Shown: piece after piece, positions 17,269 to 59,973 of the stretch
How the letters are laid out: each line of letters starts with the position of its first letter
How positions within the stretch are numbered: position 1 is the first letter of the stretch
Source of the DNA: Patescibacteria group bacterium
GTDB lineage: Bacteria > Patescibacteriota > Saccharimonadia > CAILAD01 > JADZBC01
Assembly (NCBI GenBank): GCA_052034495.1
Contig: JBPOIL010000018.1
Span: 1 to 63,450 of the forward strand
DNA length: 63,450 nucleotides
Reading direction: 5' to 3'
The notes under the pieces: model-generated
Told to the model about the DNA's origin: nothing
Seen by the model: only the letters and a program-made list of their open reading frames with translations
Databases searched by the model: none
Program-made: the position numbers and the translations under genes

Positions 17269-17381
17269 AGCTTGCAATATTACGGTAAATATGCTATATT
17301 AGTGCCACTGTCCTCGCAGTAACTTTAGTGCCATTCCGCGCTGAAGTATGTCTATCCGCTACGGCGGGGAAGAAGGTAAAG

Positions 17382-17711
17382 ATGGGAACGATTCGAGCCA
17401 GCTGCAGCGACTGTGGGGATGTCGAGTTGACATCTGCAGACGTCACCGTTCGGGTTTGTAGTGCCAACTCAGCTGGCAGCTACAGCTTCGCATGCCCCAC
17501 GTGTGGGCGTATCGTTGCTAAGTCAGCAGAACCACGCGTCGTGGAACTACTGGTGACGTCGGGCGTCCGCCTGGTCACCTGGCATCTCCCCGAGGAGCTC
17601 ACCGAGCCCCGCGCAGGAGATCCGATCGACCACGATGATCTGCTCGATTTCCACGGACTCCTGCAGCGTGACGACTGGATCGACACGCTGCGCAAGATGA
17701 CGCCCGGCTGA
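17382..17711 (+). CDS. High-GC small zinc-ribbon protein (CxxC...CxxC), actinobacterial-looking
   Basis: ORF track 17328..17711 starts at GTG; the first ATG at 17382 follows GAAGAAGG. Motifs CSDCG...CPTCG. G/C-rich third codon positions. A GC-rich hairpin GGGCCCGGT-cacgcag-ACCGGGCCC lies downstream (17751-17775). Confidence 0.6.
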   Translation: MGTIRASCSDCGDVELTSADVTVRVCSANSAGSYSFACPTCGRIVAKSAEPRVVELLVTSGVRLVTWHLPEELTEPRAGDPIDHDDLLDFHGLLQRDDWIDTLRKMTPG

Positions 17712-17808
17712 AGAAGCCAGGCACGACAGCCGAGGGGTATACCTCTCACCCGGGCCCGGTCACGCAGACCGGGCCCTTCGCTTTGCAATTATTTCGTATT
17801 GTGTTCGT

Positions 17809-18906
17809 ATGCGGCTCGTGTATAATACGCTTATGGAAGTTTTGGTGGGTATACTTATTTTCGTAATGATTCTGGGCTTTGGTGCAGTGCTCTTTATGCT
17901 GTCACGCAAGGGTTCGGATGCTACCTCCGACGGCTCGCTCGCCATGCTTAAGCAGGATTTACAGGGCATGAGCCAGCTGCTGTCGCAAACCCAGTCACAG
18001 ATGGGAGAGCGGCTGGATAAGAACAACGACGCTATGCGCGACTCAATCCATCGTCAAATGAGCGAATCAGCTAAGTTAATAACCGAGGTTACTGAGCGTC
18101 TAACCAAGCTTGATGACACCAATAAGCGCGTCGTAGATGTAGCTGACGAGCTAAAGACGCTTCAGAACGTACTACAGAATCCTAAACAGCGCGGTGTGCT
18201 GGGCGAATACTACCTCGATACTGTTCTAAAGAATGTCTTGCCGCCGGATCGCTACAAATTGCAGTACAAATTTGAGGACGGCGAGATCGTGGACGCCGCA
18301 ATCTTCCTAGAAGAGGGCAAGGTATTGCCCATTGACTCCAAGTTCAGCCTAGAAAACTACAATCGCCTGATCGAGGAGAACGATAAGACTAAGCGTGACG
18401 CGATTATTAAGGTGTTTAAGCAGGATTTGAAGAACCGTATAGATGAAACAGCTAAATACATTCGGCCCAACGAGGGGACAATGGATTTTGCCTTCATGTT
18501 CATTCCGTCCGAAGCAATCTACTACGACCTGCTTGTGAACAAGGTCGGCATGGTACAGACTTCATCACGCGACCTGATTGAATATGCTTTCCGGGATAAA
18601 AAGGTAATCATTGTATCCCCAACATCATTCATGGCCTACCTGCAGACGGTCCTGCAGGGGCTGCGCTCGTTGCAAATCGAAGAGCAAGCTAAGGAGATTC
18701 AGTTACGCGTAGGCCAGCTCGGACAGCATTTGCGAGCCTACGACACTTTCATGGCCAAACTAGGGAATTCCCTTGGAACAACCGTGAACCACTACAATAA
18801 TGCTCACAAAGAGCTCAAAAAGGTTGATAAAGATGTCGTTAAGATATCTGGTGGCAGCCCCGCTGTAGAGGCGCTGTTGGTTGATAAGCCAAGCTTAGAC
18901 GAGTAA
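17809..18906 (+). CDS. rmuC: DNA recombination protein RmuC
   Basis: N-terminal TM, coiled coil, and a conserved RmuC core (GEYYLDTVL, LPIDSKF, FMFIPSE). Confidence 0.85.
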   Translation: MRLVYNTLMEVLVGILIFVMILGFGAVLFMLSRKGSDATSDGSLAMLKQDLQGMSQLLSQTQSQMGERLDKNNDAMRDSIHRQMSESAKLITEVTERLTKLDDTNKRVVDVADELKTLQNVLQNPKQRGVLGEYYLDTVLKNVLPPDRYKLQYKFEDGEIVDAAIFLEEGKVLPIDSKFSLENYNRLIEENDKTKRDAIIKVFKQDLKNRIDETAKYIRPNEGTMDFAFMFIPSEAIYYDLLVNKVGMVQTSSRDLIEYAFRDKKVIIVSPTSFMAYLQTVLQGLRSLQIEEQAKEIQLRVGQLGQHLRAYDTFMAKLGNSLGTTVNHYNNAHKELKKVDKDVVKISGGSPAVEALLVDKPSLDE

Positions 18907-18937
18907 AGTAGATACAGAACAGAGGAACATAAGGATT

Positions 18938-19918
18938 ATGCGCATACTTTCTGGCATTCAAGCCACCGGCAAGCTTCACATAGGTAATTATTTAGGTATG
19001 GTTCGTCCTTTTGTAGCTATGCAGGAGCAAGGCGAGGCTTTTTACTTTATACCGAATCTACATTCTCTGAACGTGCGTCCTGATGCCGAAACCCTACGCC
19101 ATGATACCCTGGCCAACGTTGCCTGGTTCTTGGCTGCAGGGGTCGATCCAAAAAAGTCGGTCGTCTTCGCACAGTCGCACGTGCCGGCTCACTCCGAACT
19201 ATGCTGGACCCTGAATAACTACGTGACTATTGGCGAACTCAACCGCATGACTGCCTATAAGGACAAAAGCGCCAAAAGGGGCGCCGAAGGGCAGCTGGTA
19301 GCCCTGTTTACCTATCCAATCCTGATGGCGGCAGACATTATTTTGTATGATGCTGAAATTGTTCCTGTTGGCGAAGACCAGAAGCAGCATGTAGAGCTGG
19401 CCCGTGACATAGTAAATAGGTTTAATAAGCTTCACGGCGAGACGTTTGTACTGCCAAAAGCTGTTCTTCCGCCTGTCGGAGCCAGAATCATGAGCCTGCA
19501 AGACCCTGCGACCAAGATGAGTAAAAGCGACCCGAATCAGAGCGGGAACATTATGCTCCTCGACGACGAAGCGACGATTCGCTCTAAGGTAAAAAGGGCA
19601 GTAACAGATGACAAGGGTGCCGTAGTGGTCTCAGAGTCTGGCGGGGCAGTTACGAATTTAATCCATATTTACGCCGGGTTCTCGGGTAAGACTGCTGCGG
19701 AAATTGAATCTATGTACGCAGGAAAAGGGTATGGAGACTTTAAATCTGATCTAGCAGGCCTTTTGGTCGACAAAATAGGCGACTTGCAGCGCACCTTCCA
19801 TGCCCTGATGGCCGATGAGGACTATTTATTGAAGGTACTTGAAGAGGGTGGGGCCAAGGCAGGCACAATAGCTGTTAAGAAGCTTGCTGAAGTAAGGCTA
19901 AAGTTAGGCCTTTTGTAA
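18938..19918 (+). CDS. trpS: Tryptophan--tRNA ligase
   Basis: GIQATGKLHIGNYLG (HIGH), KMSKS, and a length of about 326 aa. Confidence 0.92.
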   Translation: MRILSGIQATGKLHIGNYLGMVRPFVAMQEQGEAFYFIPNLHSLNVRPDAETLRHDTLANVAWFLAAGVDPKKSVVFAQSHVPAHSELCWTLNNYVTIGELNRMTAYKDKSAKRGAEGQLVALFTYPILMAADIILYDAEIVPVGEDQKQHVELARDIVNRFNKLHGETFVLPKAVLPPVGARIMSLQDPATKMSKSDPNQSGNIMLLDDEATIRSKVKRAVTDDKGAVVVSESGGAVTNLIHIYAGFSGKTAAEIESMYAGKGYGDFKSDLAGLLVDKIGDLQRTFHALMADEDYLLKVLEEGGAKAGTIAVKKLAEVRLKLGLL

Positions 19919-21128: not shown

Positions 21129-22091
21129 ATGATTAATGCAGGTGCTGCGGCTGCTGCGGCCAAGACGGAAAACGACTTGCAGCTTGCAAAGGCCCAGTAT
21201 CTTGGCAAAAAGAGCGAGTTGGTCGAAGGACTAAAATCCCTATCTGGCCTGGAAGGCGAGGAGCGCAAGCGTAAGGGCGCGGAGCTAAATAAGCTCAAAG
21301 CGTCACTAGAGTCAATCTTTGCGAATCGCCAGCAAGAGCTCCTTGATGAGCTAGACGCTCTGCCACCACTTGACCTTACTCAGCCGGGGATAGGGGAAGG
21401 ATTGGGCCATGCGCACCCGGTAACACTTGTAATGGATGAGCTCTATGCGTCTTTCACTCGCCTTGGTTTCGCAATCGTGGATAGTAACGAAATTGAGAAC
21501 GATTGGTATAACTTCGAAGCGCTAAACATGCCTCCGCACCACCCAGCCAGGGACATGCAGGATACGTTCTACATCAAGGATTCAAAGGGGACCAACAGTA
21601 CATTGCCGCGCACCCATACGTCTGGCATGCAGGTCCGGTATATGGAGCAGAATAAACCGCCATTTAAGATTATTGTTCCTGGGAAGGTGTTTCGCAATGA
21701 AGACGAAGACCGTACTCATCTGTGGTCATTTACGCAGGTCGAAGGTCTTGTAGTGGGTGAGGGCGTTTCGGTGGCTCACTTGAAGGGAACGCTTCTGGCA
21801 GTTATGAAGGATCTACTGGGGGAAGACACAGAAATTCGGCTGCGACCAAGCTTTTTCCCATACACCGAGCCATCGATTGAGATTGACGTTAGCTACAAGG
21901 GCGAGTGGCTGGAGCTACTCGGAGGCGGCATGGTTCATCCGAAGGTCCTCGAGAATGCTGGGATAAATGCAGAGAAGTACAGCGGCTTCGCATTCGGGCT
22001 TGGTCCCGAGCGTATCGCAATGGTTAAATACGGCATCACAGACCTGCGTAACTTCTGGCGACCTAATTTAGCATATTTGGAGCAGTTTTAA
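21129..22091 (+). CDS. pheS: Phenylalanine--tRNA ligase alpha subunit
   Basis: Class II motifs (HPARDMQDTFY, FRNEDEDRTHLWSFTQVEG, GFAFGLGPERIAM). The track start at 21117 is GTG; ATG at 21129 sits 5 nt after GGAGG. Confidence 0.92.
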   Translation: MINAGAAAAAAKTENDLQLAKAQYLGKKSELVEGLKSLSGLEGEERKRKGAELNKLKASLESIFANRQQELLDELDALPPLDLTQPGIGEGLGHAHPVTLVMDELYASFTRLGFAIVDSNEIENDWYNFEALNMPPHHPARDMQDTFYIKDSKGTNSTLPRTHTSGMQVRYMEQNKPPFKIIVPGKVFRNEDEDRTHLWSFTQVEGLVVGEGVSVAHLKGTLLAVMKDLLGEDTEIRLRPSFFPYTEPSIEIDVSYKGEWLELLGGGMVHPKVLENAGINAEKYSGFAFGLGPERIAMVKYGITDLRNFWRPNLAYLEQF

Positions 22092-35948: not shown

Positions 35949-37454
<1,506 letters not shown>

Positions 37455-41828: not shown

Positions 41829-41905
41829 TGGGCGATTAGCTCAGGTGGTTAGAGCGCGTCACTGATAATGACGAGGTCCCAGGTTCAAGTCCTGGATCGC
41901 CCACC
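41829..41905 (+). tRNA. tRNA-Ile(GAU): tRNA-Ile (anticodon GAU), CCA encoded
   Basis: Manual cloverleaf: GGGCGAT/ATCGCCC acceptor, GCTC/GAGC D-stem, CGTCA-CTGATAA-TGACG anticodon arm, CCAGG-TTCAAGT-CCTGG T-arm, then A-CCA. Confidence 0.95.
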
Positions 41906-42008
41906 AAGCATAAGTATTATAGATATAGGCCCCATCCGAGGGGTCTTTTCATTTCCTGCTTTCCAGGGTGTGATGTTGCTACTCTGTCCGAGCATTCAGT
42001 ACGGGTTT

Positions 42009-42995: not shown

Positions 42996-43074
42996 TCTTC
43001 AGACCGGATCATTGCTCACCTCTGCTGAGTAGCGACCCGGTCTGCAAGGACTGTGGTCACAAAGGAGCCCGCCC
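42996..43074 (+). repeat. Element A, copy 1: conserved leader with a long hairpin plus GACTGTGGTC..AGGAGCCCGCC immediately before the ATG
   Basis: CAGACCGG(43000-07)/CCGGTCTG(43037-44) stem extended by about 9 further pairs. Near-identical copy at 44117-44198. Confidence 0.8.
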
Positions 43075-43989
43075 ATGAGCGAGCGAAACTGGAATGAACT
43101 GCTCGCGGCCCAACAGGCCAAGGGCAGGTTCGTCTGCGTTGGCCTCGACAGCGACGTCGACAGCCCGAAGTTCCCCACCCATCTCGCCGACAAGCGGTTC
43201 TCGAACAGCCAGTTCGCGTTCAACCAGTCGATCGTCGACGCGACCAAGGACATCGCGGGCTGCTACAAGCCGAACCTCGCGTTCTACCGCGGTGACGCCG
43301 GCAAGCGGTCGCTGCAGCGGATCATCCAGTACATCAATCGGGTGGCTCCGACCGTCCCGGTCATCCTCGACGCCAAGTGGGGCGACATCGGCAACACCAA
43401 CGACGGCTACGTCGCGGACCTCGGTGAGTTCTACGGCGCCGACGCGGTCACCGTCCACAACTACATGGGGATGGAGGCGATGAAGCCGTTCCTCGACCAG
43501 GGGAACAAGGGCATCATCGTGCTGTGCCGTACCTCCAACCCTGGTTCGGACGAGATGCAGTCGATCCTCGTCCAGGCATGGACTCAGGAGGAGGGGGAGG
43601 TCCTTTACCCGCAGCGCGAGGAGGTTCCGGGTGGGCCCGTTCACTCGGTGCTCGTTCCCAACTACCAGTACGTCGCCAATCGCGTGGCGAACCAGTGGAA
43701 CATCAACGGGAACTGCGCCCTCGTGGTCGGCGCGACCTACGCCGACGTCGAGCTGGCCATCGTGCGGGAGATCGTCGGCGACATGCCGATCCTCCTCCCT
43801 GGCATCGGCGCTCAGGGCGGTGACCTCGAGGCGACCATCGACAACGGTCGCAACTCGCAGGGTCAGGGCATGATCGTCAACAGCTCGCGCGGGATCATCT
43901 TCGCCTCCAGCGATCATGACTTCGCTCAGCGAGCTGGCGAGGAGGCGGCCAAGCTGCACGGAGCCATCACGGCTCGGCTCGCTGCCTGA
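43075..43989 (+). CDS. pyrF: Orotidine-5'-phosphate decarboxylase, type 2 (actinobacterial-type), high GC
   Basis: FVCVGLDSD, ILDAKWGDIGNT and LPGIGAQGG motifs. Third codon positions are almost all G/C. Two hand-counted 60-nt lines gave 60 % and 67 % GC. Confidence 0.85.
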   Translation: MSERNWNELLAAQQAKGRFVCVGLDSDVDSPKFPTHLADKRFSNSQFAFNQSIVDATKDIAGCYKPNLAFYRGDAGKRSLQRIIQYINRVAPTVPVILDAKWGDIGNTNDGYVADLGEFYGADAVTVHNYMGMEAMKPFLDQGNKGIIVLCRTSNPGSDEMQSILVQAWTQEEGEVLYPQREEVPGGPVHSVLVPNYQYVANRVANQWNINGNCALVVGATYADVELAIVREIVGDMPILLPGIGAQGGDLEATIDNGRNSQGQGMIVNSSRGIIFASSDHDFAQRAGEEAAKLHGAITARLAA

Positions 43990-44100
43990 CGGCACACCAC
44001 AAGCAAGGAGCTCTGTGCCAGCTCCGGGATGAACTCCCGGGGCTGGCCACTGCCACGAGTCACTCAGCAATTGAGTGGTTCATGGCAGTGAAAGCACTGC
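43987..44100 (+). repeat. Element B, copy 1: roughly 110-nt three-hairpin element directly after the cassette stop codon
   Basis: Hairpins GGCACA/TGTGCC, CCAGCTCCGGGA/TCCCGGGGCTGG (12 bp) and CACTGCCACGAGTCACTCA/TGAGTGGTTCATGGCAGTG (19 positions). Second copy at 44876-44990. Confidence 0.8.
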
Positions 44101-44116: not shown

Positions 44117-44198
44117 ATTTCAGACCGGATCGTTGCACGCTTCTAAGTAGGCGACGACCCGGTCTGAAGAAGACTGTGGTCCCAATTAGGAGCCCGCC
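44117..44198 (+). repeat. Element A, copy 2
   Basis: CAGACCGG(44121-28)/CCGGTCTG(44159-66), then GACTGTGGTCCCAATTAGGAGCCCGCC-ATG. Confidence 0.8.
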
Positions 44199-44615
44199 AT
44201 GTGTGCGAGCGAGACGGTAGGTGTAGTCCCGGTCCGCGTTCGCTACGCGGTCTGGTTCGGGCCCGAAGAGTCGGACATCTTCGACTGCGAGGTCGGGCGC
44301 AAGGCACCCGATGAGTTCGTCCTGGATCCAGCGGCGGACTACTTCCAGTTCTACGACCGCATGGTCGTCGATCTCGAAGTGGAGGAAAGAGGAACCCTCC
44401 GGCTTGTCAGCCCGCGGCTCAACGAGTCGCCGTACTACGTCCCGGGTGGGCTCATCCTCGAGGGAGAGGAGCGTGCTGCTGCCTTCGCGCCCGGTGGGCC
44501 CTTGGCCAACATCGGCTCACGGGAGGATGACATCGTCGTTCGGTCTCGTTACCGAACCCTCTGCTTCGGTGCACAGACCGGAGTGGTCGTTCTTCCGGCT
44601 CCGCCAACCCAATGA
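44199..44615 (+). CDS. High-GC hypothetical protein (138 aa)
   Basis: GC3-rich frame, AGGAG 8 nt upstream, and an ATGA overlap with the next ORF. Confidence 0.65.
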   Translation: MCASETVGVVPVRVRYAVWFGPEESDIFDCEVGRKAPDEFVLDPAADYFQFYDRMVVDLEVEERGTLRLVSPRLNESPYYVPGGLILEGEERAAAFAPGGPLANIGSREDDIVVRSRYRTLCFGAQTGVVVLPAPPTQ

Positions 44616-44878
44616 GTGCGGCTGCCAAGTTGCCCCGCAAGCCCTTCTTCTGCGGGCTGGGCCTTCACAGCTGGTTCATCGACAGGGCAATGCTCACTCG
44701 TGCGAAGCAGTGCCGCCGCTGCGAGGTCTACAAGGATGAGCAGGCCGGCCGGCGGCTTGAGTTCGAGCGCGAGGTTCGAGCATGGGCAGCCACCAGCTTT
44801 CCTTCCGAGGCGGCAGACGAACTCGTTCGGCTCAACCTCAGGGGCTGGGACGTCCTTCAGGTCATGCACAGCGCTTGA
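44612..44878 (+). CDS. High-GC hypothetical small protein with a CxxxxH...CxxC zinc-ribbon-like segment (88 aa)
   Basis: GC3-rich frame, translationally coupled (4-nt overlap) to the upstream ORF. FFCGLGLHSW...CRRCEVY. Confidence 0.6.
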   Translation: MSAAAKLPRKPFFCGLGLHSWFIDRAMLTRAKQCRRCEVYKDEQAGRRLEFEREVRAWAATSFPSEAADELVRLNLRGWDVLQVMHSA

Positions 44879-44990
44879 CGGCATACCACAACGCAAGGAG
44901 CTCTGTGCCAGTTCCGGGATCCGTCCCGGGGCTGGCCATTGCCACGAGTCACTCAATAGATGAGTGGTTCATGGCAGTGAGAACTGCAGT
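44876..44990 (+). repeat. Element B, copy 2
   Basis: Same three hairpins as copy 1. The three stem substitutions I compared (one per hairpin) are C-to-T opposite G, keeping G-U pairs on the + strand. The loop sequences differ. Confidence 0.8.
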
Positions 44991-45040
44991 TCCTTAACTT
45001 GGCCTAATCCCAGGCCCCTACAAAGAAAAGGGGGCCTGAG

Positions 45041-45430
45041 ATGGCTTCTGTTCTGTCCCTCCTGCTCGCCACCTTGGTGGTCGGCACGATCTACAACTTC
45101 GTCGACGTAGCCGTCGACAGAGACAGGCCCTTCCGGCCAGTCCATGCCATGCTGGAAAACCCCCTCATGTGGGCCGCTTCCTACGGCATCGCGCTCGTGG
45201 CTGGAGCGGTGGCCTTGCTGCTGAACGTCAGCCTCGATCCGTGGCTCACGCTGTTCATCGTGGGGGTCGTGTCCTTCATCATCGCAACGCTCCTCATCCT
45301 CACCGACAAGACGGTCAAGAACAAGGCGAAGGAGTTCCGCAACTGCTTCGTCGGCTTGGTCTCCTTCGCCCTGGTGTCCGGTTGCACCGCTGCCGGCACC
45401 CTCTGGCTGCTCAGCCTGAGCGGGAGCTGA
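45041..45430 (+). CDS. High-GC integral membrane protein (4 TM, 129 aa)
   Basis: GC3-rich frame and hydrophobic segments. Confidence 0.65.
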   Translation: MASVLSLLLATLVVGTIYNFVDVAVDRDRPFRPVHAMLENPLMWAASYGIALVAGAVALLLNVSLDPWLTLFIVGVVSFIIATLLILTDKTVKNKAKEFRNCFVGLVSFALVSGCTAAGTLWLLSLSGS

Positions 45431-45434
45431 CGTC

Positions 45435-45767
45435 ATGAACATCAACGACTACGAGGCCATTGCCGCTGATCCGGCACTGGTGGAGAAGATCCGGTTCGGA
45501 ACCTTCTATGCCATGGGCAGGTCCAAGGATCCTCGCTTCGTCGCGAAGTGGGCCGAGGTACCAGAGGCGGAGAAGGCTGCGGCTGGTGTCGTCGGCCTCG
45601 AGGCCCTTCGGTCTCTGGTAGACGACTACACGACTCCTGGTTGCAGGTGCAAGTACTGCACCTGGAAGGGCGAGTCGACCCACGGGCGACTGATCATGTG
45701 CACGCAGCGGTGGGACCGACTCTCCCCAGAGGAGCGTCGCACGATCGGTGAGTCGTGCGCCGACTGA
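45435..45767 (+). CDS. High-GC hypothetical Cys-containing protein (110 aa)
   Basis: GC3-rich frame 4 nt after the upstream stop. CRCKYC..C motif. Confidence 0.6.
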   Translation: MNINDYEAIAADPALVEKIRFGTFYAMGRSKDPRFVAKWAEVPEAEKAAAGVVGLEALRSLVDDYTTPGCRCKYCTWKGESTHGRLIMCTQRWDRLSPEERRTIGESCAD

Positions 45768-45810
45768 CAGCAAGCACTACCCGAACCCCCGTGGTTCGGT
45801 TGGGCACCAA

Positions 45811-45857
45811 GGCCCACGGAGAGACTTACGTCCCGCCCGTGGGCCTCTTCAGTTTTT
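45811..45857 (+). terminator. GC-rich intrinsic terminator closing the high-GC array
   Basis: GGCCCACGG-N17-CCGTGGGCC followed by TCTTCAGTTTTT. Confidence 0.65.
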
Positions 45858-46490: not shown

Positions 46491-46512
46491 TCAGAGGCTC
46501 GGGCCTCTTTCG

Positions 46513-46947: not shown

Positions 46948-46997
46948 TGATAGGGGGTGGCGCTGGCTTACGCCAGCAACACTCCACCATAGTTTTT

Positions 46998-47074
46998 GGG
47001 GCATTAGCTCAGCTGGTTAGAGCGCCTGCTTTGCAAGCAGGAGGTCGTCGGTTCGACTCCGACATGCTCCACCA
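46998..47074 (+). tRNA. tRNA-Ala(UGC): tRNA-Ala (anticodon UGC), G3-U70 present, CCA encoded
   Basis: GGGGCAT/ATGCTCC acceptor (G3-U70), CCTGC-TTTGCAA-GCAGG anticodon arm, GTCGG-TTCGACT-CCGAC T-arm. Confidence 0.95.
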
Positions 47075-52399: not shown

Positions 52400-54178
52400 A
52401 TGGCCACATCAAACAAAAAAGCACCCGTTCGAAAATCAAATACTCGCTACGCAAGTAGTTCTAAATCATCTCGACCCAAGTCTCGCACTGGCAGCTCCAG
52501 CCTGGCTCGTAGCTCCAAGAGCACCATCTTCACCAAGCGCAACGGTATTATAGCTGCCGGCATGGCTGCTGTTGCTGGACTCGCCTTCGTAGCCTTCAGC
52601 TTCGCGAGCGGAGCGCCCAAGACCCCCGACTATCAGTATTCTTTTAGTAAAGCCTGTATACCTACTGGTACTACTACGGGTTCTGCAGGAACCCCTGCGC
52701 CCACAGACGCCGAACAGCTCAAGGCTCAGCAGGACTGCTATGACAAGAGTGCCGAGGGACTCGTTTACCGTGTATACAAAGGGGTTTTTAACCGCGAGCC
52801 GAATGCTGGTGAATACGCCTACTGGGTTCAGCAGCTCGCTGGAGATCGCGTCCAGGGCACTACCTTTGTAAGCAAAATGATTGCTAGCAATGGCGCGGTT
52901 GTCCCAAAGACCGCCACAGACGCACAGTTTGTGAACGGACTATACAAGAACATGCTATTACGCACCGATGCAGGAATTACGGCCGACAAAAAAGGTACCG
53001 ACTATTGGGCCAAAAAGATGCAAGGCGCAAAGAAGTGGTCCCGTGCAAAAGTTGCCTATCACTTTGCTACTACCAATGAAGCTAAGCGTGCTAACGCTAC
53101 GACCTTCGTTGCATACATTAGCGCAGCAACTCCTGTGGTGATTAAGGAAAATGCCAAGGAAGCGCAAGCCGCTCGACTTGTCCAAATGAAAAAGTACGCG
53201 ACGACAGCTGGTACGAACGCCACAGCTGCCAAAAGGGCTGAGAATGCCGCCAAGTCTGCGTTAGGAACTGCCAAAGCCAGCTCTAGCTTAGAAGCAATTG
53301 CCGCAAACAAGGCAACGGCAGCCGCTGAGGCTGCGAAGGCACGAACTGCCATGCGTGCCGCCAAGACTGCGGCCGGCAAAGCCGACCGGCTCAAGAAAAG
53401 GGCTCGATCACTAGCAGTTTATGCTAAAGACATTGGCGCCGACCCAGTGTATGGCATGGCCAAGATTAACGATGTGCATAAGCTGACTAAGGCATATAGT
53501 ACTAATGCATCAAAGTCTGCAAGTACTGCCGGAAAGACTCTAGCGCAGATTGACGCTGCTTATGCAGCTCGTCGGGCGAAGATAGCAGAAGAAGCAGCAG
53601 CCGCAGCTGCAGCAGCGGAGAGAGCTAATAATTCTGGAGCGGGGAATATCCCAACCGGCGATCCTAACAAAACTCCGCCTCCGCCTCCGCCAGGTGCGAC
53701 CGTGGAACAAGTAGATGCTATCTGGAAAAGCCACTGTAATTCTAAAGCAAACTTCTTGAGTAGTGAGGCAAACTTGACGGGGGGAATAGGTAAGTACGCA
53801 TATATTATTGACTCTTCTTATACGGACGACGGCAAACACCGTAGGAGTTGCACGGAAACTCCAAAAGGGATTAGGGTGACTTCATGCACAAGGTCGTACG
53901 AAGCAAATGCTGATAGAACGCAATGTGTGCTAATTACGCGCGCAAATAATACCCCGGCTTCTCCTTACTGCAAGGGTAAGAACGTTAATAAACAATACTG
54001 GGATTATCACTACAAGGCTGTCGCTAACGCTGAAACTAATCATGCAATTAAGAAACGTACAGCAGTTTGTGATGCCAGAGGCAATATTACATATGGCCAA
54101 TGGAGTAAGTATATTCCAATTAGCTACAATACGTATAAAAACAATAAGCCCAAGTATGAAGATGGGATATTTAAGTAG
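52400..54178 (+). CDS. Paralog family member 4: basic N-terminus, TM, DUF4214 repeats, Ala-rich coiled coil, Cys-rich C-terminus
   Basis: KKAPVRKSNTRYASS..SRPKSRTGS..IFTKRNGIIAAGMAAVAGLAFVAFSFASG..PDYQYS. Confidence 0.75.
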   Translation: MATSNKKAPVRKSNTRYASSSKSSRPKSRTGSSSLARSSKSTIFTKRNGIIAAGMAAVAGLAFVAFSFASGAPKTPDYQYSFSKACIPTGTTTGSAGTPAPTDAEQLKAQQDCYDKSAEGLVYRVYKGVFNREPNAGEYAYWVQQLAGDRVQGTTFVSKMIASNGAVVPKTATDAQFVNGLYKNMLLRTDAGITADKKGTDYWAKKMQGAKKWSRAKVAYHFATTNEAKRANATTFVAYISAATPVVIKENAKEAQAARLVQMKKYATTAGTNATAAKRAENAAKSALGTAKASSSLEAIAANKATAAAEAAKARTAMRAAKTAAGKADRLKKRARSLAVYAKDIGADPVYGMAKINDVHKLTKAYSTNASKSASTAGKTLAQIDAAYAARRAKIAEEAAAAAAAAERANNSGAGNIPTGDPNKTPPPPPPGATVEQVDAIWKSHCNSKANFLSSEANLTGGIGKYAYIIDSSYTDDGKHRRSCTETPKGIRVTSCTRSYEANADRTQCVLITRANNTPASPYCKGKNVNKQYWDYHYKAVANAETNHAIKKRTAVCDARGNITYGQWSKYIPISYNTYKNNKPKYEDGIFK

Positions 54179-54680: not shown

Positions 54681-56426
54681 ATGGCCACAATAAACAAAAA
54701 GCCCTCTGTCCGAAAAACAAATACTCGTTACGTGAGTAACCCCAAATCATCCCGTGCCAAATCCCGCACTGGCCCTTTGGGGCTTGCTCGCAATACCAGG
54801 CTAACACTCTTTACTAAACGTTATAGTCTCATAGCCGCAGGTATGGCTGCTATTGCTGGCCTTGCTTTCGTAGCCCTCAGCTTCGCTGGCGGTACGCCAG
54901 ACTATCAGTACTCATTAAGCGAGAAGTGCGTAACTACACCACCAGTTGCAGTTGATCCCGCAGTAGGTGCGAACCCCACGCCCGCCTCCACAACTAACAC
55001 CCCCCAGACTTGTAAAGATTTAAGTGCAGAAGGTATGGTTTATAGACTCTATAGAGGCCTACTAGGCCGTAATCCCGACCCGGCGGGATACCAGTACTGG
55101 ACTCAGAAGCTAGCCGGAGACAGAATCAATGCCGGGGAAGTAATCAGGCAAATGGGCGGCGCTAAAATGATTACAGGAACAGACGACGCCTTTATTTCAG
55201 CCTTATATACGAATATGATGGCCCGCCCGGCCGATGCTAGAGGCAAGGCGTACTGGCTTAAGAACATGAAGAATAAAAAGAAATGGTCACGCCAAAGAGT
55301 TGTTCTTCACTTTGTGTCAACTCGCGAAGCCAAGAGAAAGAACCAGGCCGGCTTCAACACCTTCCTTGCAAGTGCATCTCCCGTAAAGATAACTCAGAAA
55401 GCTGCTGCAGAACAAAAGAAGCGCTACGAAGCAATCGTTGCATACACGAAGGCTCAAGGCAAGAACGCTGAAGCCGCGCGCAAAAATGCTTTAGCAGCAC
55501 AAAATGCCCTAAATGCAGCTAAATCTAATGCTTCTGGAGGCATTGGCCGTGAAAGACTTGCAGCTATTGCCGCCAATCAAAAAACAGCAGAGGGTGAATA
55601 TAATAAAGCTAAAGCAAATGCACGCACGACGGAGAGTATTAAAAAAATCGCGATTGCATTAAAGAATCAGTCGGATAGTTTATACAAACATGCAACCGAT
55701 ATCAAGGACGATCCTAAATATGGTAAGAATAAATTTGATGCCAACTATAAATTACTCGTAGCATTGGATAAGAATGCGGATAAAGCTGTTGCAGCCGCAA
55801 GGCAACGCATTACAGACGTTGCTGCGCAGTACGAGATTGCAGAGGCCAAGTATGAGGCTGAACAAAATAGGCTAGCGACAGAAGCAGCCGCAAGACGAGC
55901 AGCTGAACAGAGTACTAGCAACCAGGGTGGCGGGGGTAATGGAGCGACAAGTGAGGCTTGTCCTCCCGGGCAACAAAGGAATTCCAACGGCACGTGCTAC
56001 AGCCCTACTCCTCGAGAACCTAGATGTGATTCCACCAAAAGGACCACCCAAAAGATAGAAGGCAATGGCATTAGGACTATAACTACTTGGCAGTCCGTAA
56101 AACCTGATAAGAGTGGATGTTTTGACAATTCCATAAATAACTGGCAGAAGCTTACTGGTGTCTCCGGTGGCGCTAAAAAGGCACGTAAAAACCAATGTTA
56201 CTCTAGCAGGAATCTCACTGATGAGAGGCATAAATGGAAGTGGATAAGAGTTACTACAGATCTTGGTATAGGTAAAATTACCGCTCCACAGTATTCCAAC
56301 GTCAGACAGACGAGAACAGGTAGATGGTCGTGGAATGACAGCGGGAATGGTACCTGCACAAATGTATGGGGCCCCTGGATAGATCACTGGAAGGCATCAA
56401 GTGGTAGTGGTGAACTGGCTAAATAA
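54681..56426 (+). CDS. Paralog family member 5: basic N-terminus, TM, DUF4214 repeats, coiled coil, Cys/Trp-rich C-terminus
   Basis: KKPSVRKTNTRYVSN..SRAKSRTGP..LFTKRYSLIAAGMAAIAGLAFVALSFAGGTPDYQYS. Confidence 0.75.
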   Translation: MATINKKPSVRKTNTRYVSNPKSSRAKSRTGPLGLARNTRLTLFTKRYSLIAAGMAAIAGLAFVALSFAGGTPDYQYSLSEKCVTTPPVAVDPAVGANPTPASTTNTPQTCKDLSAEGMVYRLYRGLLGRNPDPAGYQYWTQKLAGDRINAGEVIRQMGGAKMITGTDDAFISALYTNMMARPADARGKAYWLKNMKNKKKWSRQRVVLHFVSTREAKRKNQAGFNTFLASASPVKITQKAAAEQKKRYEAIVAYTKAQGKNAEAARKNALAAQNALNAAKSNASGGIGRERLAAIAANQKTAEGEYNKAKANARTTESIKKIAIALKNQSDSLYKHATDIKDDPKYGKNKFDANYKLLVALDKNADKAVAAARQRITDVAAQYEIAEAKYEAEQNRLATEAAARRAAEQSTSNQGGGGNGATSEACPPGQQRNSNGTCYSPTPREPRCDSTKRTTQKIEGNGIRTITTWQSVKPDKSGCFDNSINNWQKLTGVSGGAKKARKNQCYSSRNLTDERHKWKWIRVTTDLGIGKITAPQYSNVRQTRTGRWSWNDSGNGTCTNVWGPWIDHWKASSGSGELAK

Positions 56427-57172: not shown

Positions 57173-57233
57173 TGTGAAATTATGTGAATATCTGTGAAAA
57201 CAGATTTGTGAAAAAGTGTGAATAATCGTGAAA
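57173..57233 (+). repeat. Six direct TGTGAAW (CGTGAAA in the last) repeats with 10-10-14-10-10 nt spacing; DnaA-box-like on the opposite strand (TTATTCACA, TTTTTCACA)
   Basis: Repeat starts counted at 57173, 57183, 57193, 57207, 57217 and 57227. Confidence 0.8.
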
Positions 57234-57491
57234 ATAATACAAAAGAGAAGGGGCCGAGCATGATCGCTCGGCCCCGCACTCGTCGTTGAGTGTCCTCTCG
57301 TCTTGAGCGCTACTCCTCGGCACCCTTGTCACGTGCTGGCGGCAGGTCCTTCAGTCCCGTTCCCCTTGGCAGATCCACCGGAGGCGCGTTGCGCTTGATG
57401 CCCGAAGGTCCCCTGCGGTCTGCGACAGCCGATGGGTCGTCGCCGCGAGCCTGGTGGTCCGGACGGCAGTCAGGTGGGTGAGCCTTGCGGC

Positions 57492-57608
57492 TCACCGTTG
57501 GCCGAATGCGCGTCGAGGGTGCTGACGGGCCTTGGCTTCATCAGCCCGTCGCTTCTTCTCCTTCTTGCTCAGCTTCTTGGCTGGACCCTTCTTGACCAGG
57601 CCGCTCAT
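57492..57608 (-). CDS. High-GC Lys/Arg-rich micro-ORF (38 aa), translationally coupled (TGATG)
   Basis: Hand translation gives MSGLVKKGPAKKLSKKEKKRRADEAKARQHPRRAFGQR. It is followed by the hairpin GGTGAGCC-gcaa-GGCTCACC. It is below the ORF-track size cut-off. Confidence 0.3.
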   Translation of the reverse strand: MSGLVKKGPAKKLSKKEKKRRADEAKARQHPRRAFGQR

Positions 57609-57931
57609 CAGCGCTTGCCACCCTTCTTCCCGCCCTTGCGCTCGGCTCGACGGGCTTTGCCGCTGAGCTTCGGCCCGCTCTGGCGACCCTTGTCGGGCTG
57701 GACCTGGCCTCCGAAACTGGCTTGTTGTCCGCCACCACCCTTGCCACCACCCTTGGAGGTGATGGCATGCATGGTCTGCGGCGGACTGACTGCTCCGGTG
57801 ACAGCTTTGGGCCGGCTGTGGCTGTTGAGAGGCGTTGGCGTCCCGCTGAAGCGGTCGACCTCGTCCTCGTCATCGAACAGTGGTCGCCCGCCTCGCATGT
57901 CACGCCTGAGCGCTGACTCTCTCGTTGCCAT
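57608..57931 (-). CDS. High-GC hypothetical Gly/Lys-rich basic protein (107 aa)
   Basis: The best GC3-rich frame among several overlapping ORFs. Starts at an ATG. The stop overlaps the next small ORF. Confidence 0.45.
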   Translation of the reverse strand: MATRESALRRDMRGGRPLFDDEDEVDRFSGTPTPLNSHSRPKAVTGAVSPPQTMHAITSKGGGKGGGGQQASFGGQVQPDKGRQSGPKLSGKARRAERKGGKKGGKR

Positions 57932-58040
57932 TGTGTGATGAGCTCCCCTTTGGCGCTGTGGCCAAGTTGACGATAGGTAGTGATTATTCTACGCTCGAAA
58001 CGAAAAATGTCAAGGTTAATCCATTTGTTATAATGGTGAT

Positions 58041-58733
58041 ATGAACAAGTCTTACATCTATACTAACAGTTCGAATAAATCTAATATGGCCGTAATAATT
58101 TTGCCAGAAATTTTCGGAGTCACGGACTTTATAAAGCGCGCGACTGATCGGTTTGCGAAGGAGTTTAAACTCCCGGTCTTCGCGCTCGATCACTTCTACG
58201 CTGTTACGGGTAAGTGTGAAGTGTTTGATTATGCTAAGGATATGGATAAGGGCGTGGAGATTATGAATCGCATGACTGGTGATGGCTTCTTTGAATTCTT
58301 CGCGAAGACTCTGGGCGAGATTCAAATCGAGCACCCGGGCATAACTGAATTTATTGTGGTTGGGTTTTGCTTCGGTGGTCGGTTGGCGTATCTAGCCGGC
58401 ATGGATGAGCGGGTTAGTAAAGTAGTGAGCTTCTATGGCGGGCAGCCGCATTTGCCGAAGTACTACGAGGGCAAGAGCCCGGTCGAGGCGCTTATTTTGG
58501 CTAGGGGCGGTAACGCGCTACAAGTATTGTCATTCTATGGCGGGCAGGACGAAAGTATCCCTGCCGAGGATAGAGTCAAGACCAAGCAGTTGCTCGGAGC
58601 TGCTGGCATTGGCTATACAGAGAAGGTTTACGGGCAGGCAGGCCACGCGTACTTTAACGACTCGCGGCCAGAACGCTACAGCGCCGAAGCAGCTGCGGGA
58701 TCATGGGTAGATATTAAGAAGTTTCTACATTAG
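58041..58733 (+). CDS. Dienelactone hydrolase family protein
   Basis: ILPEIFGV..., nucleophile elbow GFCFGG, C-terminal GHAYFN. Backbone-like GC. Confidence 0.8.
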   Translation: MNKSYIYTNSSNKSNMAVIILPEIFGVTDFIKRATDRFAKEFKLPVFALDHFYAVTGKCEVFDYAKDMDKGVEIMNRMTGDGFFEFFAKTLGEIQIEHPGITEFIVVGFCFGGRLAYLAGMDERVSKVVSFYGGQPHLPKYYEGKSPVEALILARGGNALQVLSFYGGQDESIPAEDRVKTKQLLGAAGIGYTEKVYGQAGHAYFNDSRPERYSAEAAAGSWVDIKKFLH

Positions 58734-58804
58734 TCATAAGCGCATAAACGAGGAGGCCCCCGACGGATGTCGGGGGCCTTGGTGCTCACGGAAGCTCTTC
58801 GGGC

Positions 58805-59088
58805 TTACCGTGATGCCTGCTGCTCCAGGCTCATGCTGAAGGCGGCCAGTAGCCACTCGAGCCAGGCTGGGGCATCTGCGCCCGTTTGGGCTCGGTAGGT
58901 GGTCTGAGCTACGCCCATGGCGTCATTGAGTGGCTGACCCCGAGCCAGGTTTGGTCAGCCAAAGTGCATAGGGCGGTTACGGCTGCCTCGCGCTGACGTG
59001 AGGTGCAGGGCGGGATTTGCCCCTGATCGCTCAAGAAGGCTTCGACGAGTCGGAGGGCCTTACTGCTGGGGTCTACCACTCGGCTCAT
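58805..59088 (-). pseudogene. High-GC small gene, apparently frameshifted (59-aa frame, then a 50-codon continuation in another frame)
   Basis: Strong SD AGGAGGTGAACG-ATG at 59088. Hand translation stops at 58909, while a second GC3-rich frame stays open from 58954 to 58805. GC-rich hairpin GGCCCCCGAC-ggat-GTCGGGGGCC downstream. Confidence 0.35.
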
Positions 59089-59227
59089 CGTTCACCTCCT
59101 AGGGCTAGTCGAGTAATGAGCTGGCAAAACTATACAATTATAGCCAGTGGAATACAAGCTTGAGAATAATTACAGGGTGACCCCGGTGCGCATGTGGCGC
59201 GCACCGGGGTCGGTGTTTCGCCGGGGC

Positions 59228-59845
59228 CTACCTGCTGCAGAGCAGCTTGTGGAGGCCCAGCAGGATGTCGCGGGTGACCTCTTCCGTGGATTGCTCCCCG
59301 TTGACGCGGATCAGCCCCCCGAGCCAGTCGTAGTAGTCGATGACCGGAAGCGTGTGCTCTCGGAACTCCGTCAGCCGATGCTCGTGCTTGCTGGGGGTGT
59401 CGTCTTCTCGGCCCCTGGGTCCTCCTTCGTGGCCACGTCGCCGCGTTTCGTCTTCGCTGACGTCGATGTAGACCACTGCTAGCACGGGGTGGCCTCGCTC
59501 AGCCATGACGCGCATGGTGTCGGCTTCTTCGCCCTGCTTGCGCCCGACGGCGTCGAGCCAGAGCATCTGGCCGTCGTATTCAGGCCCTCCCAGCTGGGAC
59601 AGGACGATCTCTGCGAACAGCTTGCTGTTCACCACGTCGCCCCCGTCCAACGATGCCTTGGCTTCTGGGTTCAGCTGTGCTGCCCGGAACAGATCGCCGC
59701 TGGAGGTGGTGGCACCACCGACGGTCTCGACCAGGATGCGGCACTGCGTGCCCTTGCCGCCGCGGGGTCGGGCATGCACGATGATCGAGCCGCAGCCGAT
59801 GGCTTCTCGGAGTTGCTGGATGGCTTCTTCTTCCAGTACGCCCAC
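59228..59845 (-). CDS. High-GC adenylate kinase homologue with a degenerate P-loop and NMP-binding motifs
   Basis: Colinear with Adk: ARPRGGKGTQ (Adk has GPPGAGKGTQ), SSGDLFRA, WLDAVGRK (Adk has LLDGFPRT), PRGREDD, RLTEFREHTLPVIDYY. The track start (59896) is a TTG inside a promoter-like motif; GTG at 59845 follows GAGGTG. The start is uncertain. Confidence 0.6.
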   Translation of the reverse strand: MGVLEEEAIQQLREAIGCGSIIVHARPRGGKGTQCRILVETVGGATTSSGDLFRAAQLNPEAKASLDGGDVVNSKLFAEIVLSQLGGPEYDGQMLWLDAVGRKQGEEADTMRVMAERGHPVLAVVYIDVSEDETRRRGHEGGPRGREDDTPSKHEHRLTEFREHTLPVIDYYDWLGGLIRVNGEQSTEEVTRDILLGLHKLLCSR

Positions 59846-59973
59846 GGCGCACCTCACTTTCAAGGTCTTGTATGAACGCGACTTGCGAACTGGCAAACTA
59901 TACTATAATTCGATCGATTTACCAAGCGTGAGGATTTTGCTGACAGTAGGTCATTTTCTCCTGACAAAAGTCT

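Follow-up and report, generated by a model that had tools for sequence, protein, structure and literature searches.

Episymbionts with reduced genomes presumably obtain their nucleotides from the host, but few cases of host-derived genes have been documented in these bacteria. The gene acquisitions described in Saccharibacteria concern the arginine deiminase system (PMC8764695) as well as nrdD, ldh, and clustered regularly interspaced short palindromic repeat (CRISPR) loci (PMC7427843), and no convincing sign of gene transfer from the Actinomyces host has been found in TM7x (PMC7427843). The present study deals with a stretch of 63,450 nucleotides from a Patescibacteria group bacterium (GTDB lineage Bacteria; Patescibacteriota; Saccharimonadia; CAILAD01; JADZBC01), namely positions 1 to 63,450 of the forward strand of contig JBPOIL010000018.1 (GenBank assembly GCA_052034495.1), hereafter referred to as the window, and with five short islets of high guanine-cytosine (GC) content scattered in it, of which islet 2 holds pyrF and islet 5 a gene for an Adk-like protein. 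In a first-pass annotation, made from the sequence alone, these islets had been interpreted as repeated small imports of DNA from an Actinomycetota host or from phages of such a host.

Horizontally acquired genomic islets, recognised by atypical composition and slow amelioration in the framework of Lawrence and Ochman, are a close described counterpart. As in that case, the islets of the window are discrete blocks with deviant GC content, GC content at third codon positions (GC3), and dinucleotide composition, set in native flanks; one block lies beside tRNA genes, and one gene has its nearest relatives in another phylum. Unlike those, the window islets measure 0.5-3 kb and carry no integrase or mobility genes, they have retained their positions across species, and their GC3 has not relaxed.

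With moderate confidence, the islets are interpreted here as self-contained high-GC units from mixed sources, which would have entered the ancestor of the clade and would have been inherited mostly vertically since then, islet 2 being a cassette array. The dating by sister genomes that had been proposed as a check indicates that the islets are old and common to sister lineages. Repeated small imports would suggest recent events, but the islets are found at the same positions, and GC-rich, in sisters whose backbone synonymous sites are saturated.

Compositional Evidence

Islet positions are given in coordinates of the whole window, and L-numbers (L002, L092, L185, and so on) are labels of related contigs or loci. 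The GC content, which is 50.7 % over the whole window, was scanned in 200-nt windows (mean 0.507, standard deviation 0.056), and the segments staying above 0.58 were listed. The islets fall into the following high-GC blocks:

17372-17831: block with islet 1, 460 bp, 59.6 % GC
42954-45913: block with islet 2, 2960 bp, 62.0 % GC
57213-58010: block with islet 3, 798 bp, 62.0 % GC
58630-59919: block with islets 4 and 5, 1290 bp, 61.3 % GC

The five discrete islets described at first are real in terms of GC, GC3, and dinucleotide signature, but islets 4 and 5 form a single uninterrupted block, so that there are four blocks in all, placed at about 17.33-17.80, 42.98-45.89, 57.19-58.00, and 58.62-59.93 kb. 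Islet 1 is the weakest of them, with an amplitude resembling that of a few backbone peaks, for example the one at 8331-8815 in an aldolase gene (58.6 %).

At the level of genes (GC3), the contrast between islets and backbone is much stronger than the contrast in block GC. The GC3 of the curated open reading frames (ORFs) of the islets ranges from 0.68 to 0.885 (0.885 for pyrF, 0.877 for the transmembrane (TM) protein of islet 2, 0.794 for the Adk-like protein, and 0.682 for islet 1), against a backbone median of 0.553 with a median absolute deviation of 0.034, and the islet genes are 2.5-6.5 robust standard deviations off; the GC3-rich ORFs with overlapping shadow ORFs reported in the first-pass annotation were recovered. 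Moreover, delta* (x1000), a dinucleotide distance normalised for GC, reaches 136 when the islets are set against the backbone, compared with a mean of 39 and a maximum of 91 in 200 random, size-matched backbone samples, and the dinucleotide signature of the islets differs from that of the backbone beyond GC content. In the compositional check suggested earlier, the islets depart from the backbone in GC, in GC3, and in dinucleotide signature.

The signals preceding the start codons differ as well. A motif resembling a Shine-Dalgarno (SD) sequence is present upstream of 7 of the 10 islet ORFs and of 5 of the 32 backbone ORFs (Fisher p = 0.002), in agreement with the SD sequences attributed to the islets. 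Conversely, a TATAAT box located 4-10 nt 5' of the start codon was found at 10 of the 32 backbone ORFs and at none of the 10 islet ORFs. This suggests widespread leaderless mRNAs in the backbone, unlike the islet genes. Backbone starts with a TATAAT-like box and no SD include those at 9979, 13878, 16759, 20719, 24897, 34810, 45903, and 58041 and, on the minus strand, those at 41737, 42635, and 57151. The edges of the islets are sharp and coincide with cassette edges. The four GC-rich hairpins quoted for the 3' ends of the islets are all present as written, at 17752-17776, 57250-57275, 58755-58778, and 59179-59211; a terminator scan lists two of them outright and a third in part.

Junctions and Assembly

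Sharp compositional jumps could also arise if assembly or binning had joined high-GC fragments of another organism to the contig, a reading whose probability is close to nil. Window positions 41857-47048 are matched without a single difference (100 % identity) by a separately assembled Logan contig (SRR34217545, 5192 bp), which covers both junctions of islet 2. Furthermore, islet 1 stands at the same site in sister contigs, and the dienelactone hydrolase (DLH) gene adjoins the Adk-like gene in the sisters L092, L096/L097, and L003, with the 23S ribosomal RNA (rRNA) gene directly next in three of them (L092, L097, and L003). The sister contigs that repeat the junctions stem from different samples and assemblers. 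Assembly chimerism is very unlikely, and the junction check that had been called for is answered by an independent contig spanning the borders of islet 2 and by sister contigs in which the junctions of the other islets recur.

Islet 1 and Its Acidimicrobiia Relatives

Islet 1 consists of one gene and its terminator:

17382..17711, plus strand: islet 1 gene, 109-aa protein, GC 0.612, GC3 0.682
17752..17776, plus strand: islet 1 terminator, perfect 9-bp GC hairpin GGGCCCGGT/ACCGGGCCC, then a T-rich tail

The protein has four cysteines (CxxC...CPxC) and a C-terminal helical part, HDDLLDFH, and has no family match in Pfam or NCBIfam. Its AlphaFold2 model reaches a predicted local distance difference test (pLDDT) score of 87 and gives no significant fold match in the PDB (best E = 0.04, TM-score 0.34). 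A total of 635 homologues were collected, and all the labelled ones outside the clade belong to Acidimicrobiales or Aquihabitans, with 59-76 % identity. One unlabelled homologue (73 %) is located in a 168-kb contig of 69 % GC, where the gene matches the local composition; by a count from the alignment, it is ~88 % identical to an Aquihabitans protein. In L086, L088, and L186, on the other hand, the islet 1 gene lies 9-13 GC points above its surroundings, and in L099 ~8 points. With relatives in Acidimicrobiia, a native composition in the 69 % GC contig, and an excess of GC in the sisters, the gene was likely transferred from Acidimicrobiia into the clade; the homology is observed, and the direction is read from composition.

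The genes for a 169-aa ORF and rmuC, which enclose islet 1 in the window, also do so in at least three other lineages (sister contigs L085-L091 and L186), and in a fourth, L099, it occupies another site. Relative to L086, the islet 1 gene shows a nucleotide identity of 85.5 %, and its flanks one of 86-89 %. The GC3 of the gene is 0.66-0.77 in lineages whose backbone 4-fold degenerate sites are saturated relative to the window. The Actinomycetota-like origin suggested for the islets is supported for islet 1, whose labelled relatives are all Acidimicrobiia, but not for pyrF, and the Adk-like protein and the orphan ORFs give no informative relatives. As for its significance, a conserved gene of Acidimicrobiia type indicates a possible partner lineage.

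The Cassette Array of Islet 2

Islet 2 comprises the following features:

43000..43074, plus strand: 5' element, copy 1, ~20-bp hairpin CAGACCGGATC...GACCCGGTCTG, then conserved spacer AGGACTGTGGTCACAA, AGGAG SD, and the pyrF start
43075..43989, plus strand: pyrF, 304 aa, type-2 orotidine-5'-phosphate (OMP) decarboxylase, GC3 0.885
44012..44099, plus strand: 3' element, copy 1, 13-bp perfect hairpin GCCAGCTCCGGGA/TCCCGGGGCTGGC, then an interrupted ~17-bp hairpin
44121..44198, plus strand: 5' element, copy 2, preceding the 138-aa ORF
44199..44878, plus strand: two overlapping orphan ORFs in one cassette, 138 aa (44199-44615) and 88 aa (44612-44878), GC3 0.734 and 0.775
44902..44988, plus strand: 3' element, copy 2, after the 88-aa ORF
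45011..45038, plus strand: SD-enclosing hairpin CAGGCCCC...GGGGCCTG, its 3' arm holding the SD of the TM-protein ORF
45041..45767, plus strand: membrane protein of 129 aa (45041-45430) and orphan ORF of 110 aa (45435-45767), GC3 0.877 and 0.775
45773..45849, plus strand: terminal element of islet 2, hairpin GGCCCACGG...CCGTGGGCC, then a T run

The pyrF product scores 191.8 bits against TIGR02127 pyrF_sub2 (cut-off 110.6) and 83.2 bits against PF00215 (cut-off 27; E = 3e-23). The motif D99-A-K101-x-x-D104-I-G is invariant in a 30-sequence alignment that includes the window protein; D99-A-K101-x-x-D104 corresponds to the catalytic Asp-x-Lys-x-x-Asp motif of the family. Judged by these matches, the protein is a true member of the type-2 OMP decarboxylase family. 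The best labelled matches of pyrF are Candidatus Saccharibacteria, Saccharimonadales, Moraniibacteriota, and Paceibacterota, with 50-58 % identity. A genome scan relying on sequence patterns, with one representative genome per species and the best 80 loci kept, likewise placed Patescibacteria first (50-56 %), with Chloroflexi, Halobacteria, and Bacteroidota ranking next; the best 80 genome loci include no Actinomycetota, although a remote actinobacterial pyrF could escape a pattern-based scan. Any relative closer than the Patescibacteria matches should have surfaced in the homology search. The Actinomycetota origin of pyrF is hence contradicted by its best labelled matches, which fall in Patescibacteria, the very outcome that the first-pass annotation had named as refuting it. 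Since the most striking gene of the islets is of Patescibacteria type, composition alone misassigns donors, and caution is required wherever it is the guide.

The GC content at second codon positions (GC2) of pyrF is 0.41, against a GC3 of 0.885. From the relation between codon-position GC and genome GC, a GC2 of 0.41 is typical of a genome near 50 % GC. In five lineages, the GC3 of pyrF is 0.79-0.92, and the proteins of the related lineages are 65-69 % identical to that of the window and 65-84 % among themselves. These data bear on an unlikely alternative in which all islet genes except that of islet 1 are native and their synonymous GC is held high. The cause would be either selection (on codon choice and on the mRNA structure that SD-led translation needs where most genes are leaderless) or GC-biased gene conversion acting at a hot spot of recombination. 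A Patescibacteria-type pyrF with ordinary GC2 and extreme GC3, the latter maintained across five lineages despite protein identities to the window of only 65-69 %, would fit such a process, as would the synonymous sites of the islets, more conserved than those of the backbone in distant comparisons, and the conserved RNA structures around the ORFs. It accounts poorly for a dinucleotide signature that differs beyond GC, for the patchy presence of the islet ORFs, most of which are orphans, for the clear actinobacterial relatives of islet 1, and for the sharp boundaries at cassette edges; moreover, the reported effects of GC-biased conversion in bacteria amount to a few GC3 points, not 30.

The four small ORFs of islet 2 (138, 88, 129, and 110 aa) have no match in Pfam, PHROGs, or NCBIfam. 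The 88-aa ORF is 34 % identical to an ORF of the L003 array. For the TM protein, the TM cassette of L185 gives 39 % identity, and similar TM cassettes occur in L184 and L003. In L002, the high-GC segment essentially consists of 5' element-pyrF-3' element in a backbone of 48 % GC. The related arrays also show features of their own. The pyrF array of L003 (2442-3388, minus strand; relative GCA_964477225.1) includes a 145-aa ORF with a weak match, below the cut-off, to the nucleoside 2-deoxyribosyltransferase family PF05014 (24.7 bits), and this weak match would make it a second gene of nucleotide-salvage type in such an array. In L184, three small low-GC ORFs (0.44-0.48) at 4903-5976 break the high-GC array directly after pyrF, one of them HicA-like by eye and without a match in Pfam.

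The 5' element is present in ten copies in five lineages (the window, L002, L003, L184, and L185), always just 5' of the first ORF of a cassette, and its hairpin has G.U pairs on the sense strand. In the 3' element, the repeated stretch starts at the stop codon and the folded part ~20 nt further. A covariance model (R1) gives 95.3 bits for copy 1, after pyrF, and 86.7 bits for copy 2, which is 92 % identical to the element after pyrF in L185. The model identifies 13 copies in five lineages; elsewhere in the window it detects no other sense-strand copy at E < 0.1, and the 41 other loci searched contain none. In the 3' element, 98.7 % of cells are paired and compensatory changes occur at 11 of the 29 pairs, compared with 3.7 +/- 1.0 pairs in shuffled controls and at most 2 when the partners were slid. 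Because the G.U pairs are conserved and the opposite strand scores far lower (26 vs 95 bits), the data point to a structure formed in the sense-strand RNA. The elements are ~87-93 % identical over aligned stretches between lineages whose pyrF proteins are 67 % identical.

The SD-enclosing hairpin recurs at the same position in L003 and L184 as CAGGCCTC...GAGGCCTG, a compensated change, and is a candidate translational switch. Hairpins of this kind in TM cassettes are located at ~232-262 in L003, ~2478-2507 and ~3090-3121 in L184, and ~1360-1390 in L185. Between the terminal element of islet 2 and the stretch that comes after pyrF in L184, the identity is 85 %. In Rfam 15, neither element has a match at the gathering score, and the region 42850-46000 gives only two chance-level matches (E >= 0.4); a scan of IMG/VR for both elements returned one chance match, in an amidase-like coding region of a 71 % GC contig.

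The window has one unit more than L185, consisting of the 138- and 88-aa ORFs, with the breakpoints in the 3' elements, and cassette presence differs in general between the window and L185 or L184, with breakpoints at elements. By its sequence organisation, islet 2 is an array of variable cassettes, framed by a conserved hairpin leader at the 5' side and a double hairpin at the 3' side. The two elements probably act in mRNA stability, termination, and translation and, as repeats, probably allow gain, loss, and reordering of cassettes by homologous recombination. It is possible, and is put forward tentatively, that islet 2 and its counterparts in at least four lineages represent an undescribed gene-cassette system, made of variable arrays of small, SD-led, high-GC ORFs in a pulled-apart rRNA operon, whose elements would control expression and serve as portable ends for swapping cassettes between lineages of competent bacteria with reduced genomes. 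That the codon usage, SD sequences, and terminators are host-like because the cassettes work in a high-GC host cell is very improbable. In a group whose gene expression signals are almost uncharted, the 5' and 3' elements are candidate cis-regulatory or recombination modules.

The stretch between islet 2 and tRNA-Ala (45903-47004) encodes a kinase of AAA_33/zeta-toxin-like type (195 aa) and a protein of 163 aa that has two helix-turn-helix (HTH) domains. Apart from these two, the search of the ORFs of 41.4-47.1 kb gave no candidate: no integrase domain was found there, and no recombinase, plasmid, or phage gene within or beside the array. The 163-aa protein has weak matches to HTH domains of resolvase/invertase type. 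Both genes have backbone-like GC, the kinase has a leaderless-type start, and both belong to the 5 kb that is missing between the tRNAs of L184. A metagenome scan for sister loci of islet 2 based on the magnesium transporter MgtE gave only distant relatives (53-68 %), without islet genes or high-GC islets of similar size.

Islets 3, 4, and 5

The remaining islets contain the following features:

57250..57275, minus strand: islet 3 terminator, perfect 10-bp GC hairpin with a T-rich tail
57310..57931, minus strand: islet 3 operon, 107 aa (57608-57931, ends GKKGGKR) and 61 aa (57310-57495), GC 0.65-0.66
58754..59088, minus strand: islet 4, terminator hairpin 58754-58779 and 59-aa orphan ORF 58909-59088 with an AGGAGG SD
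59179..59211, minus strand: hairpin downstream of the Adk-like gene, perfect 13 bp, GACCCCGGTGCGC/GCGCACCGGGGTC
59228..59896, minus strand: islet 5, Adk-like nucleoside monophosphate (NMP) kinase, GC3 0.794

The proteins of islet 3 are small, very basic, and of low complexity, and the operon is preceded by a promoter-like site at 58013-57986 (11/12 matches). In L003, the position of the 61-aa ORF is taken by a counterpart of 53 % identity, and by inspection the 107-aa protein has an N-terminal FDD..D.F in common with L092 and a C-terminal GGKR in common with L092 and L003. The slot of islet 4 holds four other small high-GC ORFs in L092 and nothing in L096.

The start of the Adk-like gene is likely the GTG at 59845 (205 aa), the longest ORF starting with a TTG at 59896. 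The protein reaches 64.5 bits against PF00406 (cut-off 26.8) and stays below the cut-off of all 21 NCBIfam models of Adk or UMP-CMP kinase (best 86 vs 187). By inspection, it has the P-loop ARPRGGKGT, in which Ala replaces the first Gly of the family pattern GxxGxGKGT, the motif SSGDLFR at the NMP site (family pattern S/TxGDxxR), and RRRGHEGGPRGREDD, and the P-loop Lys and the LID arginines are kept. It is accordingly filed, on these motifs and scores, as a putative protein of the NMP-kinase fold and not as Adk. Only nine close relatives are available (54-99 % identity), all adjoining the same DLH gene where the surroundings are known. An exhaustive HMMER search revealed a distant Adk-like family of ~205-215 aa (32-43 % identity, head WLGTGSINxFGxPxxGKDTQ), whose amino-acid composition is unlike that of high-GC genomes (ten members were looked up, none labelled). 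The Adk-like protein belongs to a small family confined to the clade.

The cargo of the islets had been linked to nucleotide metabolism. Of the two genes concerned, pyrF passes TIGR02127, and the Adk-like protein passes PF00406 yet lies below all NCBIfam Adk cut-offs. Plausibly, pyrF and the NMP kinase serve nucleotide salvage; no partner enzyme of pyrF (for example pyrE) was found in the window.

Origin and Inheritance

The import of all five islets from an Actinomycetota host or its phages, by natural competence and repeated insertion, is improbable as a general explanation. It draws on the Acidimicrobiia relatives of islet 1, on the SD leaders of the islet genes, and on the signature of islet 2, whose delta* is 81 to one Acidimicrobiia-like locus, vs 159 to its own backbone and 130-180 to labelled Patescibacteria, a comparison based on that single actinobacterial locus. 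In addition, the hairpin of the 3' element is GC-rich and without a U tract, and some actinobacterial terminators have been reported as GC-rich stems of this kind. However, pyrF finds its closest labelled relatives in Patescibacteria, and its best 80 genome loci include no Actinomycetota; the Adk-like family is specific to the clade, with distant relatives that are not high-GC-like in amino-acid composition, and the islets are old and common to sister lineages. Moreover, the 16S rRNA of the window misses Saccharibacteria-specific primer sites, so that an actinobacterial host is an assumption, and phage relatives were not found in three resources.

The latter point comes from several searches. 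PHROGs gave nothing for the islet ORFs apart from two weak matches for islet 1 (E = 2.5e-4 and 7e-3). With tblastn against 50,697 phage records, islet 1 and the 138-, 88-, and 110-aa ORFs had no match, and pyrF and the Adk-like gene matched gut-phage contigs only (24-38 % identity). IMG/VR scans with the islet 1, pyrF, and Adk-like proteins returned no relatives. An actinophage source of the islets, also entertained in the first-pass annotation, thus found no counterpart in PHROGs, the 50,697 phage records, or IMG/VR. Taken as a whole, the import idea fits one islet of five; its flagship, pyrF, contradicts it, and the events are old, not recent or repeated.

The age of the islets was approached through 4-fold degenerate sites, using the synonymous identity in excess of the codon-family-specific expectation. 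In most comparisons, islets and flanks have diverged to a similar degree. For the window and L185, this excess is 0.42 for pyrF and 0.47 for the ferric-reductase-domain gene (FRE); in the comparison with L086, it is 0.41 for islet 1 and 0.47 for RmuC; and with L092, it is 0.21 for the Adk-like gene and 0.22 for DLH. The exception is islet 1 when compared with the two most distant sisters, with an excess of 0.35 vs 0.01-0.13 in the flanks. Islets 1, 3, and 5 are at the same positions in sisters, with portions of the islet 3 operon present in both L003 and L092, whereas the cassettes of islets 2 and 4 vary. The similar excess identities, together with the nucleotide identity to L086, fit descent from the ancestor of the clade and not recent import.

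A different view of the same data, regarded as rather unlikely, is that the cassettes form a shared pool and circulate among lineages by transformation and recombination at the elements or at conserved flanks, their composition reflecting the pool itself or a high-GC plasmid or phage reservoir. Cassette content and order indeed differ in close relatives, with breakpoints at elements, the elements are ~87-93 % identical where the pyrF proteins are 67 % identical, and islet 1 occupies a different site in L099. Furthermore, pyrF of the window and of L002 have an excess synonymous identity of 0.45, while the backbone of L186, from the same sample as L002, is saturated (0.01-0.15); L002 and L186 may, however, stem from different genomes. 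Against such circulation, the majority of comparisons agree with islets and flanks having diverged together, the array and its neighbourhood yielded no recombinase, plasmid, or phage gene, and IMG/VR gave no copies of the elements.

The explanation favoured here, ancient entry of self-contained units followed by mostly vertical descent, can be outlined as follows. Each unit would consist of a promoter, an SD leader, one to three small ORFs, and a GC-rich hairpin terminator, and we infer that several high-GC sources contributed the units before diversification of the clade. The gene of islet 1 would come from an Acidimicrobiia-like actinobacterium, pyrF would be a Patescibacteria-type gene driven to, or kept at, very high GC3, and the Adk-like kinase and the small ORFs would be lineage-specific. 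Islets 2-5 would have gathered between 16S and 23S, in a stretch pulled apart into a variable region. Since GC3 is unrelaxed through speciation, something other than slow amelioration probably maintains it: the high GC3 is probably upheld by selection on synonymous sites or RNA structure, or by continued exchange of cassettes. Synonymous constraint in the islets and later movement between lineages both fit the excess identity of islet 1 and the unrelaxed GC3. A GC3 near 0.9 that persists in a 50 % GC genome is unlike simple amelioration and offers a tractable case for the study of selection or biased conversion.

Several points weigh against this explanation. No donor was found except for islet 1, so that for the orphans "foreign" means composition alone, and the GC of islet 3 is partly due to proteins rich in Arg, Gly, and Pro (GC2 0.59). 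The synonymous excess of islet 1 is more in keeping with exchange at a later time, or with constraint on synonymous sites, than with simple vertical descent. It is also possible that pyrF is native, as in L002 it lies near FtsZ with a thioredoxin-reductase-like gene nearby, and the latter is found in two labelled Patescibacteria loci as well, though order and orientation differ and identity is low. In addition, ~16-20 kb of each sister genome is covered, the covariation counts stem from an alignment fitted to the model and comprise five lineages only, and the roles of the 5' and 3' elements are proposals drawn from their sequence.

The rRNA Operon and the Organism

The operon genes in the window are the following:

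35949..37453, plus strand: 16S rRNA (Rfam)
41830..41906, plus strand: tRNA-Ile(GAT)
46998..47074, plus strand: tRNA-Ala(TGC)
60224..63450, plus strand: 23S rRNA, cut by the window end, model positions 1-2188 over 3227 nt, ~1 kb extra

Islets 2-5 all lie inside this rRNA operon, in which the order 16S-tRNA-Ile-tRNA-Ala-23S is kept and stretched to ~24 kb. The added DNA consists of five paralogous surface-protein genes, mgtE, a ferric-reductase/cytochrome-b5 pair, DLH, and the islets. The tRNA genes of L184 are 53 nt apart, with the pyrF array after tRNA-Ala, and relative to this arrangement the 5 kb of the window at 41907-46940, including islet 2, is inserted between tRNA-Ile and tRNA-Ala. L185 has its tRNA-Ile inverted and adjacent to the pyrF cassette, and its array leads directly into the ferric-reductase gene. 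The tRNA-Ile is also inverted in L092, where an 81-aa high-GC ORF with no counterpart in the window (12077-12322; GC 0.65, GC3 0.81) lies between mgtE and this tRNA gene.

The five paralogues (37771-39630, 39717-41411, 51331-52326, 52400-54178, and 54681-56426) have a basic N-terminus and one TM helix. Two are confirmed as DUF4214, and two more align to DUF4214 ORFs of sister loci. Several have long, coiled-coil-like tails rich in Ala and Lys, and their number and sequence vary among relatives; in the window they occupy a large share of the DNA between 16S and 23S. Within the 23S gene, a 161-aa ORF for a LAGLIDADG homing endonuclease (62720-63205, plus strand; PF00961, E = 2e-25) together with the extra ~1 kb suggests an intron or insertion.

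Concerning the identity of the organism, the primers TM7314F, TM7580F, TM7-910R, and TM7-1177R each cover more than 95 % of the Saccharibacteria 16S sequences in SILVA (PMC6073563). At the 910 site, the window 16S equals the non-target control of the same study (PMC6073563). The mismatches with the four primer sites number 2, 4, 2, and more than 4 positions, respectively. The 16S also keeps a C at E. coli position 912, at which TM7 sequences reportedly have U, and shows unusual changes in conserved stretches, such as GACGTCTGGTC and CACCCGTCCTACAATGG. Nonetheless, the window has traits of Patescibacteria, namely unlinked rRNA genes and a LAGLIDADG ORF in the 23S, and L002 and L099, linked to the window through the pyrF cassette or through the islet 1 gene, have FtsZ proteins 57-58 % identical to that of a labelled Saccharibacteria locus. 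The organism is best called Saccharibacteria-like. Life on Actinomycetota is an assumption, and the Acidimicrobiia-type gene is the sole hint in that direction.

Elsewhere in the window, PheT (22091-24856, compared with 12719-15484 of L086) is only 80 % identical to its closest sister, whereas UvrD, RmuC, TrpRS, and the 169-aa protein near it are 96-99 % identical to those of L086. Such a low identity amid conserved neighbours suggests that strains have recombined in a mosaic fashion. Positions 7-6435 encode a protein of 2142 aa that combines NHL repeats with He_PIG Ig-like domains, and an 842-aa protein with a type IV secretion coupling-protein domain (VirD4/TraG-like) is encoded at 26874-29402.

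Comparison With Known Systems

As in the acquisitions of Saccharibacteria, reduced-genome episymbionts would here gain metabolic genes from other bacteria. The donors in those cases are mixed, whereas in the window one small gene points to Acidimicrobiia, and the 16S is atypical of Saccharibacteria. Unlinked and intron-bearing rRNA genes are reportedly found in Patescibacteria. The window resembles this condition in the distance between 16S and 23S and in the LAGLIDADG ORF in the 23S; it differs in that the canonical order is kept and stretched, the added DNA being paralogous surface-protein genes and high-GC cassettes.

Regarding islet 2, an integron array, or a cluster of attC sites lacking integron integrase (CALIN), was considered as a candidate and rejected, as no integrase domain is present in the ORFs of 41.4-47.1 kb and attC features are absent. 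The likeness lies in a one-directional array of small, mostly orphan ORFs, mostly followed by a conserved, structured repeat of ~85 nt, and in a cassette content that varies between close relatives. Islet 2 is without intI, which a CALIN does not need. However, attC sites have RYYYAAC/GTTRRRY cores and a single bottom-strand hairpin with extrahelical bases, whereas the repeat of islet 2 forms two adjacent sense-strand hairpins, and no R''/R' cores were seen in it by inspection. Furthermore, cassettes of islet 2 have a 5' leader and SD of their own, a feature that is usually missing from integron cassettes.

Phage morons, which are inserted between the genes of a phage, are likewise units with their own promoter, SD, small ORF, hairpin terminator, and deviant composition. 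The islets, in contrast, are outside a prophage, with no phage genes nearby and no relatives in PHROGs, INPHARED, or IMG/VR. The 3' element can also be compared with repetitive extragenic palindromic (REP) sequences and bacterial interspersed mosaic elements (BIMEs), which are GC-rich hairpin repeats directly after stop codons that likely stabilise or terminate the upstream mRNA. Unlike these, the 3' element is longer and has two hairpins, it has so far been seen only inside the array, with 13 copies within ~10 kb of array sequence and none in the other sister loci searched, and no transposase of the REP-associated tyrosine transposase (RAYT) type was seen. In conclusion, the presence of horizontally acquired islets is in itself ordinary. 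What is unusual is an array with two RNA elements that match no described family, the concentration of islets in an rRNA operon, and the persistence of an extreme GC3 through speciation.

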